Assembly: GCA_963721805.1 (NCBI GenBank)
Contig: CAVRJY010000002.1
Span: forward strand, 224,001-288,000
Source: Nitrospirota bacterium
Lineage (GTDB): Bacteria > Nitrospirota > Thermodesulfovibrionia > Thermodesulfovibrionales > JdFR-86
Direction of reading: 5' to 3'
Length of the DNA: 64,000 bases
Within the stretch, counting starts at the first letter, position 1; the number at the start of each line of letters is the position of its first letter. The notes under the pieces are model-generated. The model did no database searches, was not told where the DNA came from, and saw only the letters and a program-made list of their open reading frames with translations. The position numbers and the translations under genes are program-made. Positions 53,025 to 59,481 of the stretch are shown here, piece after piece.

Positions 53025-53074
53025 TGAGCGGGGTCTTTCCCGCGAATAGCTGCCACGGGACGCTGTCCCGAATA
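53025..53074 (+). repeat. Structured repeat family B, copy 3
   Basis: TGAGCGGG-gtcttt-CCCGCGAATA-n7-CGGGACGCTGTCCCG-AATA. Confidence 0.6.
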
Positions 53075-53104
53075 CTTGACAAAATTACTCGGGTATTATA
53101 ATCT
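53072..53104 (+). promoter_or_regulatory. IscR type-1-like operator overlapping a sigma70 promoter
   Basis: ATACTTGACAAAATTACTCGGGTAT (53072-53096) matches ATASYYGACTRWWWYAGTCRRSTAT at 23/25 positions. Promoter TTGACA-17-TAATCT. Confidence 0.8.
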
Positions 53105-53110
53105 TTATTC

Positions 53111-53593
53111 ATGTTGAGGCTATCGACAAAGGGACAGTACGGCGTGCGGGCGATGGTCGAGGTCGCGCGCGGGTATCCGGCCGAGACGACCTCGATAAAG
53201 GAGATCTCGGCCCGGCAGGACGTCTCGGTGGCCTATCTGGAGCAGATACTGAGCACGCTTAGGCGCGCCGGGCTGATCACGAGCGTCAAGGGCCCGGGCG
53301 GCGGTTACAGGCTCAGCCGCCCTCCAAAGGAGGTCAGCATCGGGTTGATACTGCGTGCGCTGGAGGGTCCGGTCGCGATCACCTCGTGCATGGACCCGGC
53401 CGAGGGGTGCGTCAGGGCCGACAGCTGCGTGAGCCACCTGCTCTGGAAGTCCCTCGGCGAGAAGATCGAGGGGTTCCTCGATACGATCTCTCTAGAGACC
53501 CTCCTTGCCGAGGAGCGCCAGCTTCTGAGAAAACGCCCCGCCGCCCTTCGTATCGTCGGACGCAAGGGAGGGAAGGCGGTAGCCTCGGCATGA
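53111..53593 (+). CDS. iscR: Rrf2-family regulator, IscR-like
   Basis: LSTKGQYGVRAM, YLEQIL, SVKGPGGGY, three Cys plus His (C..C..CVSH). Confidence 0.85.
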   Translation: MLRLSTKGQYGVRAMVEVARGYPAETTSIKEISARQDVSVAYLEQILSTLRRAGLITSVKGPGGGYRLSRPPKEVSIGLILRALEGPVAITSCMDPAEGCVRADSCVSHLLWKSLGEKIEGFLDTISLETLLAEERQLLRKRPAALRIVGRKGGKAVASA

Positions 53594-53853
53594 CGATCAA
53601 GTTCGTAAACGACGTGCACGCGGACGTTACGACTGACGTTGTGTACATGATGTGCCCGATGCATCTGCTGAAGCTCGAGGAGATGATAAAGGAGATAGAG
53701 CCGGGGCAGGTGCTCGAGATTCTGACGGACTACGACGGCGCGCTCGAGGACATACCGGCATGGTGCGAGAAGCACGGCCACGAGTTCATAGGGATAGACG
53801 AGGCCGAGGATTTCTACAAGTTCTATATAAGAAAGAGGAAGGAGGGCTGCTAA
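53590..53853 (+). CDS. TusA-family sulfur carrier
   Basis: D....CPMH, GQVLEILTD...DIPAWC. Start overlaps the iscR stop (ATGA). Confidence 0.88.
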   Translation: MTIKFVNDVHADVTTDVVYMMCPMHLLKLEEMIKEIEPGQVLEILTDYDGALEDIPAWCEKHGHEFIGIDEAEDFYKFYIRKRKEGC

Positions 53854-53856
53854 GAG

Positions 53857-55065
53857 ATGGGCGCAAGGTATTTTGACCATGTGGCAACGAATCCGCTGAG
53901 GGCCGACGTGCTCGAGGCGATGCTCCCGTATTTCAAGGAGGAGTTCGGCAACCCGTTGAGCAACTACCGGCTCGGCGTTGCGGCGCGCGAGGCGATAGAG
54001 AAGGCAAGGGGACAGGTAGGAGAGCTTATAGGCGCGAAGCCCCAGGCTGTCATATTCACCGCAAGCGGGGCGGAGTCCAACAACATGGCCCTGCGCGGCT
54101 TGGCGCTGGCCAAGAAGGACAAGGGCACGCACGTCATAGTCTCGAAGGTCGAGCACCACTCGGTTCTGAACGCGGCGAGGTTTCTGGAGAAGTCCGGCTT
54201 CACCGTGACGTACCTGCCGATTGACGGCCACGGGCTGGTTACGCCAGAGGTGCTCAAGAAGTCCATGACCAAGGAGACCGTGCTCGTATCGGTCTCGGCC
54301 GCGAGCTCGGAGGTAGGCACGATAGAGCCGACCGCGGAACTCGCGAAGGTCGCGCACGAGGGCGGGGCGCTGTTTCACGCCGACGGGGTGGCCACGACCG
54401 GCAATATCCCGGTTGACGTGAAGGCAATGGGCGTTGACGCCTACAGTATCGCGGCGCATCAGTTTTACGGCCCCAAGGGCGCCGGAGCGCTATACGTAAA
54501 AGAGGGCACGCGCATCGTGCCGCTGATATACGGCGGGATTCAGGAGGGCGGACGCCGCGCGGGCACCGAGAACGTCCCGGCGATCGTCGGGATGGGCGCG
54601 GCGGCCGCGATAGCGCGCGCTTCCCTTGAGGGGCGCATGGCTCACTTGCTGCCGCTTCGAGACAAACTCATCGCCGGGGTGATGGAGCGCATACCTAACG
54701 TTCTGTTTACCGGAGCCCCGGCCGACCGCCTTCCGGGCCACGCGAGCTTCTGCGTGGAGTACATAGAAGGCGAGTCGATGATGATGCTATTGGAGGCGCG
54801 CGAGATACTGGTCGCGAGCGGCTCGGCCTGCTCCTCTAAGGCATTGAAATCATCGCCCGTGCTGCTGTCGATGGGCATACCGTCGCACGTGGCTCAGGGC
54901 TCTGTCGTATTTACTATGGGCGAGGGCACGACGGAGGACGACGTGACGTACGTCCTAGAGACGTTCCCCCAGATAGTGACGAGGCTTCGCGAAATCTCCC
55001 CCTACGCCGGAGGACGCGGCTGGGGCGAAAACCAGGAGGGCGCAACATGTATTCCCCAAAAGTAA
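53857..55065 (+). CDS. IscS/NifS homolog lacking the PLP Schiff-base lysine
   Basis: YFDHVAT, FGNPLS, EHHSV, GTENV and SGSACSS present, but HQFYGPKG replaces HKxxGPKG. Confidence 0.9.
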   Translation: MGARYFDHVATNPLRADVLEAMLPYFKEEFGNPLSNYRLGVAAREAIEKARGQVGELIGAKPQAVIFTASGAESNNMALRGLALAKKDKGTHVIVSKVEHHSVLNAARFLEKSGFTVTYLPIDGHGLVTPEVLKKSMTKETVLVSVSAASSEVGTIEPTAELAKVAHEGGALFHADGVATTGNIPVDVKAMGVDAYSIAAHQFYGPKGAGALYVKEGTRIVPLIYGGIQEGGRRAGTENVPAIVGMGAAAAIARASLEGRMAHLLPLRDKLIAGVMERIPNVLFTGAPADRLPGHASFCVEYIEGESMMMLLEAREILVASGSACSSKALKSSPVLLSMGIPSHVAQGSVVFTMGEGTTEDDVTYVLETFPQIVTRLREISPYAGGRGWGENQEGATCIPQK

Positions 55066-55418
55066 TGGAACACTTCATGAACCCGCGCAACGTGGGCGAG
55101 ATCGAAAACCCCGACGGCGTGGGCGAGGTCGGCAACCCGACCTGCGGCGACGCGATGAGGATCACGATCAAGGTCAAGGACGGCATCATCGAGGACGTGA
55201 AGTTCCGCACCTTCGGATGCGGCTCGGCCATCGCGGTCAGCAGCATGGTGACCGAGATGGTCAAGGGCAAGACGCTTGACGAGGGGCTCGCCATCACCAA
55301 GGACGCCGTAGCCAGCGAGCTGGGAGGCCTGCCGCCCCAGAAGATGCACTGCTCCAACCTCGGGGCCGATGCCCTGCACGCGGCCATAGCCGACTACAAA
55401 AAGAAACACCCGCAGTGA
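55047..55418 (+). CDS. iscU: Fe-S scaffold IscU/NifU-N
   Basis: YSPKVMEHF, GNPTCGD, FGCGSAIA, KMHCS. Confidence 0.93.
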   Translation: MYSPKVMEHFMNPRNVGEIENPDGVGEVGNPTCGDAMRITIKVKDGIIEDVKFRTFGCGSAIAVSSMVTEMVKGKTLDEGLAITKDAVASELGGLPPQKMHCSNLGADALHAAIADYKKKHPQ

Positions 55419-55655
55419 TTCTCTCGCCCCGCGGAGCGGCCCCAACAGGCCGCTTCGCGGCCGGGGCAGACTGAAACCAGCGGCAGCCGGGCGTTTTGAG
55501 TGCTGCCGCCCCCTCATGCGCCGCCAGCCGGTGCTTTCGAAAAAATGCGCGGATCGGCCCGTTTTTCGCTTGACATTTTTTTCGCGGATAGGGTATTTTT
55601 AACGTCCAAGAGGGGATTCCTCTCAATAAGTCGAAACTGAGCGAGGGTAAGAGGA

Positions 55656-56388: not shown

Positions 56389-56550
56389 TTACTTCTCTGA
56401 GCCGCAACAGGACTGAGACGGCGCATTTTTTCCGCCGCAGCAGCCTTTGAACATGGACATGCAGCTCTCCTTGAAGCCCTCGCCGGTAAAGTTGATCTGG
56501 CAACCGTCCTCGGTCTCGGACACCTTCATGCTACAGCATTCCTTTTCCAT
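56389..56550 (-). CDS. 53-aa Cys-rich putative metal(loid)-binding protein, absent from the ORF track
   Basis: MEKECCSMKVSETEDGCQINFTGEGFKESCMSMFKGCCGGKNAPSQSCCGSEK. SD GGGAGGTG. Confidence 0.85.
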   Translation of the reverse strand: MEKECCSMKVSETEDGCQINFTGEGFKESCMSMFKGCCGGKNAPSQSCCGSEK

Positions 56551-56580
56551 GATTATTCACCTCCCTTCAGCCTCTGACTA

Positions 56581-56596
56581 TTCGAGAACACTCGAA
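56581..56596. promoter_or_regulatory. Candidate ArsR operator
   Basis: TTCGA-n6-TCGAA palindrome. A related TTCCA-n6-TAGAA at 56950-56965 overlaps the arsR -10 box and start. Confidence 0.55.
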
Positions 56597-56616
56597 CAAA
56601 GCGCGCAAAAAAAAGG

Positions 56617-56955
56617 CTATTCCAGAAATTTTTTGATCGCCTCCACCGCAGCGCTGTTGACCTTGCAGCGGAAGAGCTGCCCGTCGCGCTCGCAGGTCAC
56701 GAGCCCGGCGGCCTGCAGCTCCTTGAAGTGGTGCGATATCGTCGAGCGCGAGAGATCCATGCAGTCGCAGACCTGTGTGAAGGCCCTCTCGATGCCCCCT
56801 TCAGAGCCACAGCAGGAGCTCCCCTTCATGCGAAACTCTGCGCCGACCATCGACCCCTCCGGCACGCAGCAGTTTTTGTAGAGCATGACGAATATCCTGA
56901 GCCGCTGCTCGTTGGAGAGGGCCTTGAAGATCCTGGCATAGTTCGAAAGTTCCAC
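56617..56955 (-). CDS. ArsR/SmtB family transcriptional regulator
   Basis: FKALSNEQRLRIF, SRSTISHHFKEL..AGLV, two CC pairs. Promoter TTGACA-17-TATTCT at 56962-56990 implies a GTG start at 56955. Confidence 0.9.
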   Translation of the reverse strand: MELSNYARIFKALSNEQRLRIFVMLYKNCCVPEGSMVGAEFRMKGSSCCGSEGGIERAFTQVCDCMDLSRSTISHHFKELQAAGLVTCERDGQLFRCKVNSAAVEAIKKFLE

Positions 56956-57012
56956 GATCATAGAATAACAGTATCTCCAGCCCTTGTCAAGCGGGGGGGC
57001 TATTGATCCGTT

Positions 57013-59481
57013 TTAAGTGACCGCGCGAGGGACGAGCCACCTGATCAGCCACACCTTTATCGCGTCATTGACGCCGAGGCATGCGAGGAACGCGTACCCA
57101 AGGATCGTGAGCGTCTGCCACCATGGAAGGGGCATGAGGCCGGGCAGGCCGACGAGGGTCAGGGCGGTGCCGATCAGGGTCTCGGCGATGGTCGCGCCCA
57201 TCAGGGTCTTGCTCGGCATCGTAGTCCAGAACCAGCTTCGCTCCCTCCCGGAGATGATCGAGACCGTACCGAAGTAAAGCAGCGTCAGGAAGCTGAAGGT
57301 GTAAAGCGCATTGTCGCTGGTCGCGAGCCCGAAACGCGTCCAGCATATCCACAGGAGCAGCAGGGCCTCGACGAGCGTCGCGATGCCGATAGCGACCGAG
57401 ACGATGATGAACCCGCCGATCCGCCATGTCTCTGGTCTCCTCGAGGGACGGACGTTGTCCGTGGCGAGCGATATCTTTCCGGCGTCGGTCAGGAAGACCT
57501 GAAGCAGCATCGCGAAGGCCGAGATGACGAAATGGCCGGTTATGACGAACGCGACCGCGACGAACGCGGACTTAAGGATCGTCCGGCTGATCTTGTTGAT
57601 GATCCACGTAAGGATGCGCTGGTAGATCGTCCGGCCCTGCGTTACGAGCTCGACTATGTTCGTCAGGCCGGGCTCGGTGAGCACGACGCTCGCAGCGCCC
57701 TTGGCCACGTCGGTCGCGGCGCTGACGGCTATGCCGACCTCGGCCTGCCGGAGCGCGGGGGCGTCGTTTACGCCGTCGCCGGTCATGCCGGTGACATGGC
57801 CCGCGGCCTGGAGGTGCTGCACCACGATGTACTTGTCCTCGGGATAGACCTCGGCGAACCCGTCCGCGCCCCTTAGCAGGTCGACCGCCTCGCCTCCGGG
57901 CTGCGCTGCCGCCGCCTTCAGGTCGGCCACGCGCCGGATGTTCGGAAGCCCTACGCCCGCGCCGATCTCAGAGCCCACCGCGAGCGCATCTCCGGTGAGC
58001 ATCTTGACCGAGACGCCGAGGTCTTTGAGTTCCGCGATCAGCTCCCTGGCGTCCGGACGGGGCGGGTCATACAGTGTGACCAGCCCTAGAAGCGTGAGCG
58101 GGCCGGTCTCGGGCCCGCGCGCTACAGCGAGCGTCCTGTAGCCCTTTGAAGCCGAATCGCTGACACGCGCCTCCAGGGCCTCAATCTCCGGGAGCGCGAG
58201 CCCGCAGGCCGCGGCTACCGTGCGCACAGCGCCCTTGATCACCCTTGTGCGCTGGCCGAACTGCTCGACCAATGCTTCAGTGCGCCTGATTTTCGCGTCA
58301 AACGGGATGAACGATATTGGGGTGGCCGGTGCGATGTTGTTAAACGCGCCCCGGGCCTTCGCCGCGGCGAGGAAGGCCAGGTCGATCGGATCCTGATTGG
58401 CCTCCTGCGAGGCCAGCGCCCCGGCGGCCAGCACCCCGGCCTCGGTGGCATGCCCGATCGGGATAACTCCGGTTACGGCGAGCTGGTTTTGCGTGATCGT
58501 GCCGGTCTTGTCCACGCACAGGACGTCCATCGTCGCTGCGTCCTCCGAGGCGCTCAGCCGCGTGACCAGCACGCCGCGCTTGGCGAGTTCGTTGGAGCCG
58601 ACGGCCATGCTTACGGTGAACATCACCGGCAGCGCCACAGGCACCGCGCTCATCAGGAGCACGAGCAGCAGCGGGAGCACCTCCAGGATCGGCAGGCCGC
58701 GCAGCAGCGACATCACGGCCACGACTGCCATCAGCACGCCCACGATCACGAAGAGCCAGCGCACGATGCCGGCCACGACCCCCTCGATATGGAGCTTGGG
58801 GCGCGCCTGCTGGACGAGTTCGGTGGTGCGGCCGAAATACGTCTTCGCGCCGGTGAGTATGACCACGCCGTTGCCCTCGCCCCGGCGCACGACCGATCCC
58901 GAGGAGAGCACCTCGCCGGGTGCACGGTTTACGTCCCTCGACTCTCCGGTGAGCACGGACTGGTCGACCCGCAGGGTCCCGGTGAGGAGTTTAATGTCCG
59001 CAGGGACGATATCGCCCGGCCGCACGCGGACTATATCGCCCGGCACGAGTTCGCGGGCCGCTATGACCTGCCATGCGGCATCGCGCAGGACGCGGGCGCT
59101 GACCTGGAGCCTCCGCCGCAGCGCCTCGACCACGCCCGCCGCGCGGAGCTCCTGCATGTAGCTTAGCGCGGCGTTGACGACCAGAAGCGCGCTTACGACC
59201 GCGAGGTCGGAGTATTTGTGGAGCGCGGCCGAGAGCGCCATGATCACCTCGAGCATCCAGGCCGAGAGGCCCCAGAACTTGCTAAGGAACATCAGGACCG
59301 GGTGCTTCTTTCGCTCCGTGACCTCGTTGTAGCCGTGCTCATGCAGGCGAAGCTGCGCCTCGGCCTGCGTCAGGCCGGCCGCGGGGTCCACGCGGAGCGC
59401 GGCGAGGGTGTCAGCGACCGTAGCGGCCGCGATGTCCGGTGCGGCCGCAGGGCCGGCAGCTGTCGGGCCATGTTGCTCCAT
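57013..59481 (-). CDS. Plasma-membrane proton-efflux P-type ATPase (P3A-like)
   Basis: DQSVLTGES, PVALP, DKTGT, PFD, KGA, DPPRPD, MLTGD, TGDGVNDAPAL. Confidence 0.88.
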   Translation of the reverse strand: MEQHGPTAAGPAAAPDIAAATVADTLAALRVDPAAGLTQAEAQLRLHEHGYNEVTERKKHPVLMFLSKFWGLSAWMLEVIMALSAALHKYSDLAVVSALLVVNAALSYMQELRAAGVVEALRRRLQVSARVLRDAAWQVIAARELVPGDIVRVRPGDIVPADIKLLTGTLRVDQSVLTGESRDVNRAPGEVLSSGSVVRRGEGNGVVILTGAKTYFGRTTELVQQARPKLHIEGVVAGIVRWLFVIVGVLMAVVAVMSLLRGLPILEVLPLLLVLLMSAVPVALPVMFTVSMAVGSNELAKRGVLVTRLSASEDAATMDVLCVDKTGTITQNQLAVTGVIPIGHATEAGVLAAGALASQEANQDPIDLAFLAAAKARGAFNNIAPATPISFIPFDAKIRRTEALVEQFGQRTRVIKGAVRTVAAACGLALPEIEALEARVSDSASKGYRTLAVARGPETGPLTLLGLVTLYDPPRPDARELIAELKDLGVSVKMLTGDALAVGSEIGAGVGLPNIRRVADLKAAAAQPGGEAVDLLRGADGFAEVYPEDKYIVVQHLQAAGHVTGMTGDGVNDAPALRQAEVGIAVSAATDVAKGAASVVLTEPGLTNIVELVTQGRTIYQRILTWIINKISRTILKSAFVAVAFVITGHFVISAFAMLLQVFLTDAGKISLATDNVRPSRRPETWRIGGFIIVSVAIGIATLVEALLLLWICWTRFGLATSDNALYTFSFLTLLYFGTVSIISGRERSWFWTTMPSKTLMGATIAETLIGTALTLVGLPGLMPLPWWQTLTILGYAFLACLGVNDAIKVWLIRWLVPRAVT

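Follow-up and report, generated by a model that had tools for sequence, protein, structure and literature searches.

A conserved iscR-tusA-iscU operon of Nitrospirota encodes an IscS paralogue that lacks the catalytic lysine and is probably not a desulfurase

Schemes of iron-sulfur (Fe-S) biogenesis assume that the IscS or NifS protein found beside IscU supplies sulfur taken from cysteine. According to passages of two papers (PMC8918507; PMC7585200), the IscS of Archaeoglobus fulgidus has Asp at the position of the Lys that binds pyridoxal 5'-phosphate (PLP), shows no desulfurase activity and gives a Cys ligand to the [2Fe-2S] cluster on IscU, sulfide being the proposed source of sulfur, so that the precedent invoked for the present locus in an initial annotation, made from the DNA sequence alone, is a real one. 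An excerpt of the second paper (PMC7585200) also states the absence of the essential Lys for IscS1 of Methanosarcina acetivorans, which is suggested to act like the A. fulgidus protein. In Escherichia coli, as stated in part of PMC11302665, TusA takes persulfide from IscS and competes with IscU, and sections of a review (PMC13066941) present the MIS of Garcia et al. (2022) as a minimal MisS-MisU system in which MisS is described as a cysteine desulfurase. Here we describe a bacterial operon that encodes IscR, TusA, IscU and a protein of the NifS/IscS fold without this Lys, which we call IscSQ (gene iscSQ) after the Gln found in its place. The operon is located in a 64,000-nt stretch from a Nitrospirota bacterium (GCA_963721805.1, contig CAVRJY010000002.1, positions 224,001 to 288,000), hereafter the window, to whose first letter all coordinates refer.

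When IscSQ was aligned to IscS of E. coli K-12, used as the reference for residue mapping, Gln202 (codon CAG, 54460-54462, plus strand) was found at the position of the Schiff-base Lys K206, so the Lys expected in NifS/IscS desulfurases is missing, as the initial annotation had read. Its further reading that NNE had changed to SSE, DAxQ to DGVA and the substrate-carboxylate Arg of SxRFS to SVVFT was borne out by the same alignment, in which N154/N155 correspond to Ser150/Ser151, Q183 to Ala179 and R354 to Val351, and two more losses that it had not listed were detected, T76 to Ala72 and S203 to Ala199. In total, IscSQ has lost the Schiff-base Lys and five other contacts to PLP or substrate (T76, N155, Q183, S203 and R354), and has kept the persulfide-forming Cys of the mobile SGSACS loop (C328; Cys325, codon TGC, 54829-54831), whose retention had also been noticed at the outset. 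The gene (53857-55065, plus strand) is an intact open reading frame (ORF) of 402 aa with a match of 245.3 bits to Pfam Aminotran_5 (PF00266), and the fold of its product is that of the cysteine desulfurases, with PDB entries of these enzymes matched at E 6e-122 and A. fulgidus IscS at 1.6e-95.

In the available text of PMC9978102, the single changes K206A, Q183E, H104Q, D180G and C328S abolish the desulfurase activity of E. coli IscS, whereas R354K does not. As the six contacts lost in IscSQ have E. coli counterparts that include such activity-abolishing sites, the protein is read here as a probable non-catalytic paralogue. PLP-dependent formation of persulfide is very unlikely because no internal aldimine is possible and the substrate-binding Arg is lost, and, judged from these residues, IscSQ most likely cannot make persulfide from cysteine. 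The Lys of the neighbouring GPKG motif (K211; Lys207 in IscSQ) is kept, but it is invariant in canonical enzymes also, in which it is not the Schiff-base residue, and therefore gives no special reason to expect a rescue. The score of IscSQ with TIGR03402 (459.6 bits, under the cut-off of 530.75) does not discriminate, since the canonical NifS/IscS-type paralogue of the same genome falls short too (489.3 bits). The best PDB matches were 9wfe, 9wep, 9wfy, 9wew, 9wf8, 9wfb and 9wer, seven variants of a single "cysteine desulfurase" of 406 aa. Four of the variants, compared by alignment, vary among themselves at the equivalents of T76, N155, Q183, S203, K206 and R354 and at two more positions, and the entries appear to represent the engineering or dissection of the same residue set that is changed in IscSQ.

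The replacements are a property of the whole clade. The 120 best homologues (65-83% identity) have, without exception, HQ, AS[S/P]E, GAE, no equivalent of Gln183, [V/I]VF and the Cys loop, with Gln at the K206 position, Val or Ile for the substrate-carboxylate Arg and an invariant Cys325; in a 92-row alignment, Q202, A72, S150, A179 and V351 were nearly invariant. The same 120 sequences revealed a clade-specific C-terminal tail (55018-55065) made of Gly-Trp, an acidic/Gly stretch, Cys398 and Pro-x-Lys, in which W389 is conserved in 120, G388 in 119 and Cys398 in 109, seven of the remaining ones being truncated. Neither the other Lys-less representatives nor the canonical paralogue of the genome nor E. 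coli IscS has this Cys tail.

Among 40 genomes of the same order, 36 have an IscSQ orthologue with 60-70% identity to the window protein, and the remaining four, from two families, have only matches of about 40%. Since orthologues of the canonical paralogue have only 43-59% identity to that of the window genome, IscSQ is at least as constrained as the canonical enzyme. The clade belongs to the Thermodesulfovibrionia (Nitrospirota), its named relatives being metagenome-assembled genomes (MAGs) of Nitrospirota/Thermodesulfovibrionia that include Candidatus Sulfobium and Dissulfurispiraceae. A record titled as a Chloroflexota MAG (L029) carries the full operon, with an IscSQ 66% identical, among otherwise Nitrospirota records; this could be due to a binning error or to a transfer. 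A search of public sequencing runs found no RNA run containing the stretch and three DNA contig runs, with small shares of 0.08-0.14; contigs cover the stretch piecewise, and one 151-nt contig from a run that may be the source sample spans the Gln codon and shows no difference.

The four genes lie on the plus strand (53072-55418), tightly packed behind a single IscR type-1 box and with no space for internal promoters among them. The start of tusA (53590-53853) overlaps the stop of iscR (53111-53593) in an ATGA, a gap of 3 nt separates tusA from iscSQ, and iscSQ overlaps iscU (55047-55418) by 19 nt. Their best NCBIfam models were IscR, TusA, FeS_nifS and NifU_clost, with the curated cut-off being exceeded by NifU_clost only. 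The last gene encodes a single-domain U-type scaffold (176.6 bits with Pfam NifU_N; 205.8 bits with TIGR03419, above the cut-off of 187.9), and its ligand residues C33, C58, H101 and C102 are kept in 77-78 of 78 orthologues, in agreement with the initial view of an intact IscU. The linkage seen in the window holds for its HQ-type homologues: at the 80 best genome loci, an IscR gene lies upstream in 77, a TusA gene upstream in 78 and an IscU gene downstream in 77, the three loci without IscR, two of them also without TusA, being cut contigs.

The product of iscR is an Rrf2 family regulator (Pfam Rrf2, 133.5 bits) with 39% identity to E. coli IscR, in which C92, C98, C104 and H107 align to the Cys, Cys, Cys and His that bind the cluster; its best NCBIfam model was IscR (TIGR02010), at 139.5 bits, below the cut-off of 207.55. 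The operator was searched for with the IscR type-1 consensus, which gave two matches when checked on the E. coli iscR promoter. In the window it gave a single match (53072-53096, two mismatches, 0.00 expected by chance), which is also the sole site with up to four mismatches in the 2.78-Mb genome. The box overlaps the predicted promoter, as first proposed, with the -35 TTGACA (53076-53081) inside it and the -10 TATAAT (53097-53102) after a spacer of 15 nt; because of this spacer, a promoter scan that needs 16-18 nt listed no promoter at iscR. A box scoring at least 20/25 was present in 76 of 77 orthologous upstream regions, with its end 13-15 nt from the ATG in 75 of these regions; 4 of 400 random windows of the same loci reached that score. 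The locus thus shares with the ISC system (iscRSUA-hscBA-fdx) an IscR that has the Cys3His ligands and is preceded by a type-1 operator at the iscR promoter. The ATG of iscR lies about 8 nt past the -10 hexamer (53097-53113), leaving no room for a Shine-Dalgarno sequence, and iscR is therefore probably translated from a leaderless mRNA.

The motif usually found in TusA is CPxP, with a conserved Cys. In the TusA encoded by the operon (PF01206, 76.3 bits), the atypical CPMH described for the window is invariant, as are Cys22, His25 and Cys59, in the 79 linked sequences available. The genome has five other TusA-family genes, six in total, with the motifs CPYP (two copies), CPMP, CPQP and CPAT, and these lie near a DsrE-family gene, a sulfur transporter gene (PF04143), genes for FlpD and ferredoxin domains, or a pyridine nucleotide-disulfide oxidoreductase gene. 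The two CPYP genes are near-identical (G000 C3:14823-15035 and C1:1332890-1333102) and share as neighbours a gene with a CofH/MqnC C-terminal domain and the pyridine nucleotide-disulfide oxidoreductase gene; they belong either to a duplicated segment or to one region assembled twice.

The association between TusA and the loss of the Lys was also found in other lineages. From a metagenome scan for which 15 diverse Lys-less representatives served as seeds, 80 loci were obtained, of which 12 were Lys-less, 66 canonical and 2 incomplete. By profile search, a TusA-family ORF was present in the flanks of 6 of the 12 Lys-less loci and in none of the 66 canonical ones (Fisher p 3.6e-6, a value that overstates the case because relatives are not independent). 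The TusA proteins of these other loci have the usual CPxP motif, and their genes are placed after iscU, directly after the Lys-less iscS or, at one locus (L130), upstream of it, in gene orders that differ from that of the window operon; iscU was adjacent in 9 of the 12. A prediction of the complex between IscSQ and TusA scored 0.02 against a mark of 0.32, which is evidence neither for nor against a contact.

Among the best 150 representatives of clusters at 50% identity, 125 have the Lys and 25 lack it, with Gln, Thr, Ser, Arg, Ile, Gly, Leu, Asp, Pro, Ala, Met, Glu or Asn in its place, and most of the 25 are also without the equivalents of Gln183 and Arg354. Named Lys-less members come from Nitrospirota (Nitrospirae), Chloroflexota and one Proteobacteria-labelled MAG, and are annotated as "cysteine desulfurase"; another representative, P0168, is of the A. 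fulgidus type (431 bits to 4EB5). Both trees were restricted to representatives of 340-450 aa. In a FastTree phylogeny of 143 rows, the window protein falls in a group of 28 rows, 26 of them Lys-less (support 95), and the A. fulgidus-type group of four is placed elsewhere (support 99). An IQ-TREE phylogeny of 66 rows, from which five near-duplicate HQ sequences and one partial sequence had been dropped, recovered the same separate clades (supports 99 and 98) on a weak backbone. Forcing all 24 Lys-less rows into one clade, with one isolated Met row set aside because it groups with a Lys row, cost 38.4 log-likelihood units and was not rejected by the approximately unbiased (AU) test (p-AU 0.147). 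Orthology of IscSQ to the Archaeoglobus type is unsupported, and the two may have arisen independently, by convergence, as both trees favour. In P0121, a representative of the mostly Lys-less clade, the Lys is kept, but the equivalents of Gln183 and Arg354 are missing and the Cys loop is altered; such a protein may be an intermediate on the way to inactivity.

The iscU of the operon is the only match to PF01592 in the genome and hence its only U-type scaffold gene; no A-type carrier (PF01521) and no HscB (PF07743) were matched in this 94%-complete genome, and iscA, hscBA and fdx are absent from the operon. Two Nfu-type matches (PF01106) lie elsewhere. A DsrA was found at 532 bits (cut-off 392.85), with DsrB adjacent to it. 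A third Aminotran_5 match (L003) was set aside as an aminotransferase, as, judged by eye, its translation has none of the motifs conserved in the desulfurase alignment and it lies beside a dehydrogenase-like ORF.

On the basis of the observed sequence features and how well they are conserved, of synteny, of the operator and of the genes present, we infer a loss of activity, a set of protein contacts and a route for sulfur. We are reasonably confident that the locus is an IscR-controlled minimal IscU-based Fe-S operon in which a non-catalytic IscS paralogue acts as a platform for IscU and as a Cys relay or ligand, with sulfur arriving as TusA persulfide, as sulfide or as both. In such a system, IscSQ would hold IscU and either lend Cys325 as a ligand, like A. 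fulgidus IscS, or relay sulfur through it. In the favoured route, the co-transcribed TusA would carry a persulfide on its Cys22 and pass it to Cys325 or IscU, TusA being charged by the separate canonical NifS-type desulfurase of the genome or by enzymes of sulfur metabolism, with DsrAB-derived sulfide, used directly, as a plausible parallel source. Repression by holo-IscR, bound to the single type-1 box, would set in when clusters suffice.

Several observations weigh against parts of this model, and other explanations have to be considered along with them. Three of the 80 loci (L038, L062 and L080) are truly without a downstream iscU, an unrelated ORF of 567 aa occupying its place in L062; 6 of the 12 other Lys-less loci have no TusA in the available DNA, two of them ending soon after iscU; and in the linked TusA His replaces the second Pro of the usual motif in all 79 sequences. 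IscSQ keeps the equivalents of H104 (His100), D180 (Asp176), H205 (His201) and T243 (Thr237) in addition to the catalytic Cys, and might bind PLP or pyridoxamine phosphate non-covalently, as A. fulgidus IscS does. Together with the retention of some PLP binding by E. coli K206A, stated in an excerpt of PMC9978102, this would be the basis for IscSQ still acting as a cysteine desulfurase, through non-covalent PLP or another Lys such as that of GPKG. We regard this as very improbable: the GPKG Lys is no Schiff-base residue in the canonical enzymes, six contacts are lost together when the same excerpt has single changes at Q183 or K206 killing the E. coli enzyme, the substrate-carboxylate Arg is gone from every homologue, and, according to a passage of PMC8918507, A. 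fulgidus IscS did not regain PLP on a D199K change. The chance that the Lys loss is only apparent, caused by a sequencing or assembly error or by a decaying pseudogene, is practically nil; AAG to CAG is a one-base change, but this reading is refuted by the conservation of the residues in 120/120 homologues, of the orthologue in 36/40 relatives and of the operon, besides the intact ORF, and the initial annotation was right to discount an error.

The inventory of the genome also contains elements that do not favour the proposed operon as the main or cysteine-independent route. On another contig there is a NifS/IscS-type gene of the canonical kind, which has all the catalytic residues and no iscU beside it, and a SufC plus a short SufBD-like pair could be the main scaffold. 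Of the 36 relatives with an IscSQ orthologue, 34 have a second, weaker match too, and the 27 second (non-HQ) copies examined were canonical at all eleven positions checked. Eleven of these 27 loci (L184, L185, L189, L190, L193-L197, L199 and L200) have an adjacent iscU of their own, so canonical and Lys-less U-type modules occur together in those relatives, and the window genome has the Lys-less module only. The proposal that the system is independent of cysteine is thus unsupported: as the genome holds a canonical gene, cysteine could remain the ultimate source of sulfur through TusA, and IscSQ may be a heterodimer partner or a regulator. The last idea is part of an explanation in which the module does not serve Fe-S assembly, IscSQ being a pseudoenzyme partner or regulator of the canonical NifS, or the module being a sulfur relay for thiolations or dissimilatory sulfur metabolism. 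The coexistence of both paralogues in nearly all relatives and the six TusA-family genes, some of them beside DsrE-family, PF04143 transporter or FlpD and ferredoxin-domain genes, would agree with it, whereas the first gene of the operon encodes an IscR with cluster ligands, behind the only type-1 box of the genome, the operon includes the only IscU, and the contexts of sulfur metabolism are already occupied by other TusA paralogues; we consider it improbable. Somewhat less improbable, though still unlikely, is a system of the Archaeoglobus type that uses sulfide only, in which IscSQ would be no more than a scaffold and Cys ligand, and the cluster on IscU would be built with free sulfide produced by dissimilatory sulfite reduction; in that event, TusA would do other work, such as competing with IscU for IscSQ or regulating sulfur flow. 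The presence of DsrAB is in its favour, and parts of the cited sources propose sulfide for A. fulgidus IscS-IscU (PMC8918507), describe that sulfide supports the SMS system and IscS-deficient E. coli (PMC12192291; PMC13015791) and report competing sites for IscU and TusA on E. coli IscS (PMC11302665). Against it, TusA is in the operon at 78 of 80 loci with an invariant Cys22, and recurs beside Lys-less homologues only (6/12 vs. 0/66), a pattern hard to explain without a role for TusA in replacing the lost chemistry. Of the initial suggestion that sulfur comes from sulfide or from a TusA persulfide instead of cysteine, the TusA part has therefore gained support and the independence from cysteine has not.

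Outside the operon, the upstream neighbour is an MFS transporter gene, and downstream there is an S-adenosylmethionine decarboxylase gene with a promoter-like site of its own (55570-55599). Further on, a minus-strand cluster (56389-59481) contains a Cys-rich ORF of 53 aa (56389-56550), an adjoining ORF of 114 aa with Cys-rich motifs (56617-56961) and, by eye, a P-type-ATPase-like ORF of 822 aa (57013-59481); judged by eye from these ORFs, it looks like a metal-handling cluster.

A bacterial class thus keeps, under strong constraint, a version of IscS that is most likely unable to supply cysteine sulfur, coupled to a sulfur carrier. If the TusA route is true, Fe-S assembly would be tied directly to the persulfide and sulfide pools of sulfur-respiring anaerobes, and the operon would offer a tractable bacterial model for the question of the sulfur source in Archaeoglobus. 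More tentatively, a Lys-less IscS-like protein, IscU and a dedicated TusA might constitute a widespread, unrecognised Fe-S route of anaerobes, in which the PLP step was abandoned, sulfur is taken from sulfur-energy metabolism as TusA persulfide or as sulfide, and the former desulfurase serves for docking, as a relay and as a ligand. In practice, the label "cysteine desulfurase" is probably wrong for many database entries, with consequences for the metabolism reconstructed from MAGs of anaerobes. Our literature search, which did not cover Garcia et al. (2022), did not turn up any account of a clade of Lys-less IscS/NifS proteins in bacteria, of their linkage to TusA or of a TusA-IscU operon; the clade-specific C-terminal Cys tail, the invariant CPMH of the linked TusA and the presence of TusA beside Lys-less homologues are new.

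The IscSQ clade is the closest bacterial counterpart of the inactive IscS of A. fulgidus (PDB 4EB5, 4HVK and 4R5F). Both have the NifS/IscS fold and the Cys loop without the Lys, both have lost the Gln183 and Arg354 equivalents, and both are encoded with IscU (adjacent in 77/80 loci here); the DsrAB of the window genome parallels the sulfate-reducing A. fulgidus, a dissimilatory sulfur reducer. They differ in that the A. fulgidus protein has Asn-Asp where IscSQ has His-Gln, keeps the T76 and N155 equivalents, has no C-terminal Cys tail and belongs to a separate clade in both trees. M. acetivorans IscS1, reported to be Lys-less as well, is archaeal and uncharacterised. The IscS hub of E. coli shares the same three protein families and an IscR with its type-1 box upstream, but there IscS is the catalytic source of sulfur and tusA is unlinked, whereas here the flow would be reversed, from TusA to IscSQ or IscU; the window operon also lacks the iscA, hscBA and fdx genes of the E. 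coli isc operon, and its genome gave no match to PF01521 or PF07743. Like the MIS, the operon combines a NifS-like protein with a single-domain U-type scaffold in an anaerobe, with no carrier or chaperone genes, but IscSQ lacks the catalytic Lys and contacts and, by its sequence, is not a desulfurase like MisS, and IscR and TusA are added. The SMS system (SmsCB), a sulfide-using minimal SUF that, according to part of PMC12192291, likewise serves anaerobic Fe-S assembly without a dedicated cysteine desulfurase, resembles the SufC/SufBD-like pair also present in the window genome, but it is based on an unrelated scaffold family and has neither IscU nor TusA.

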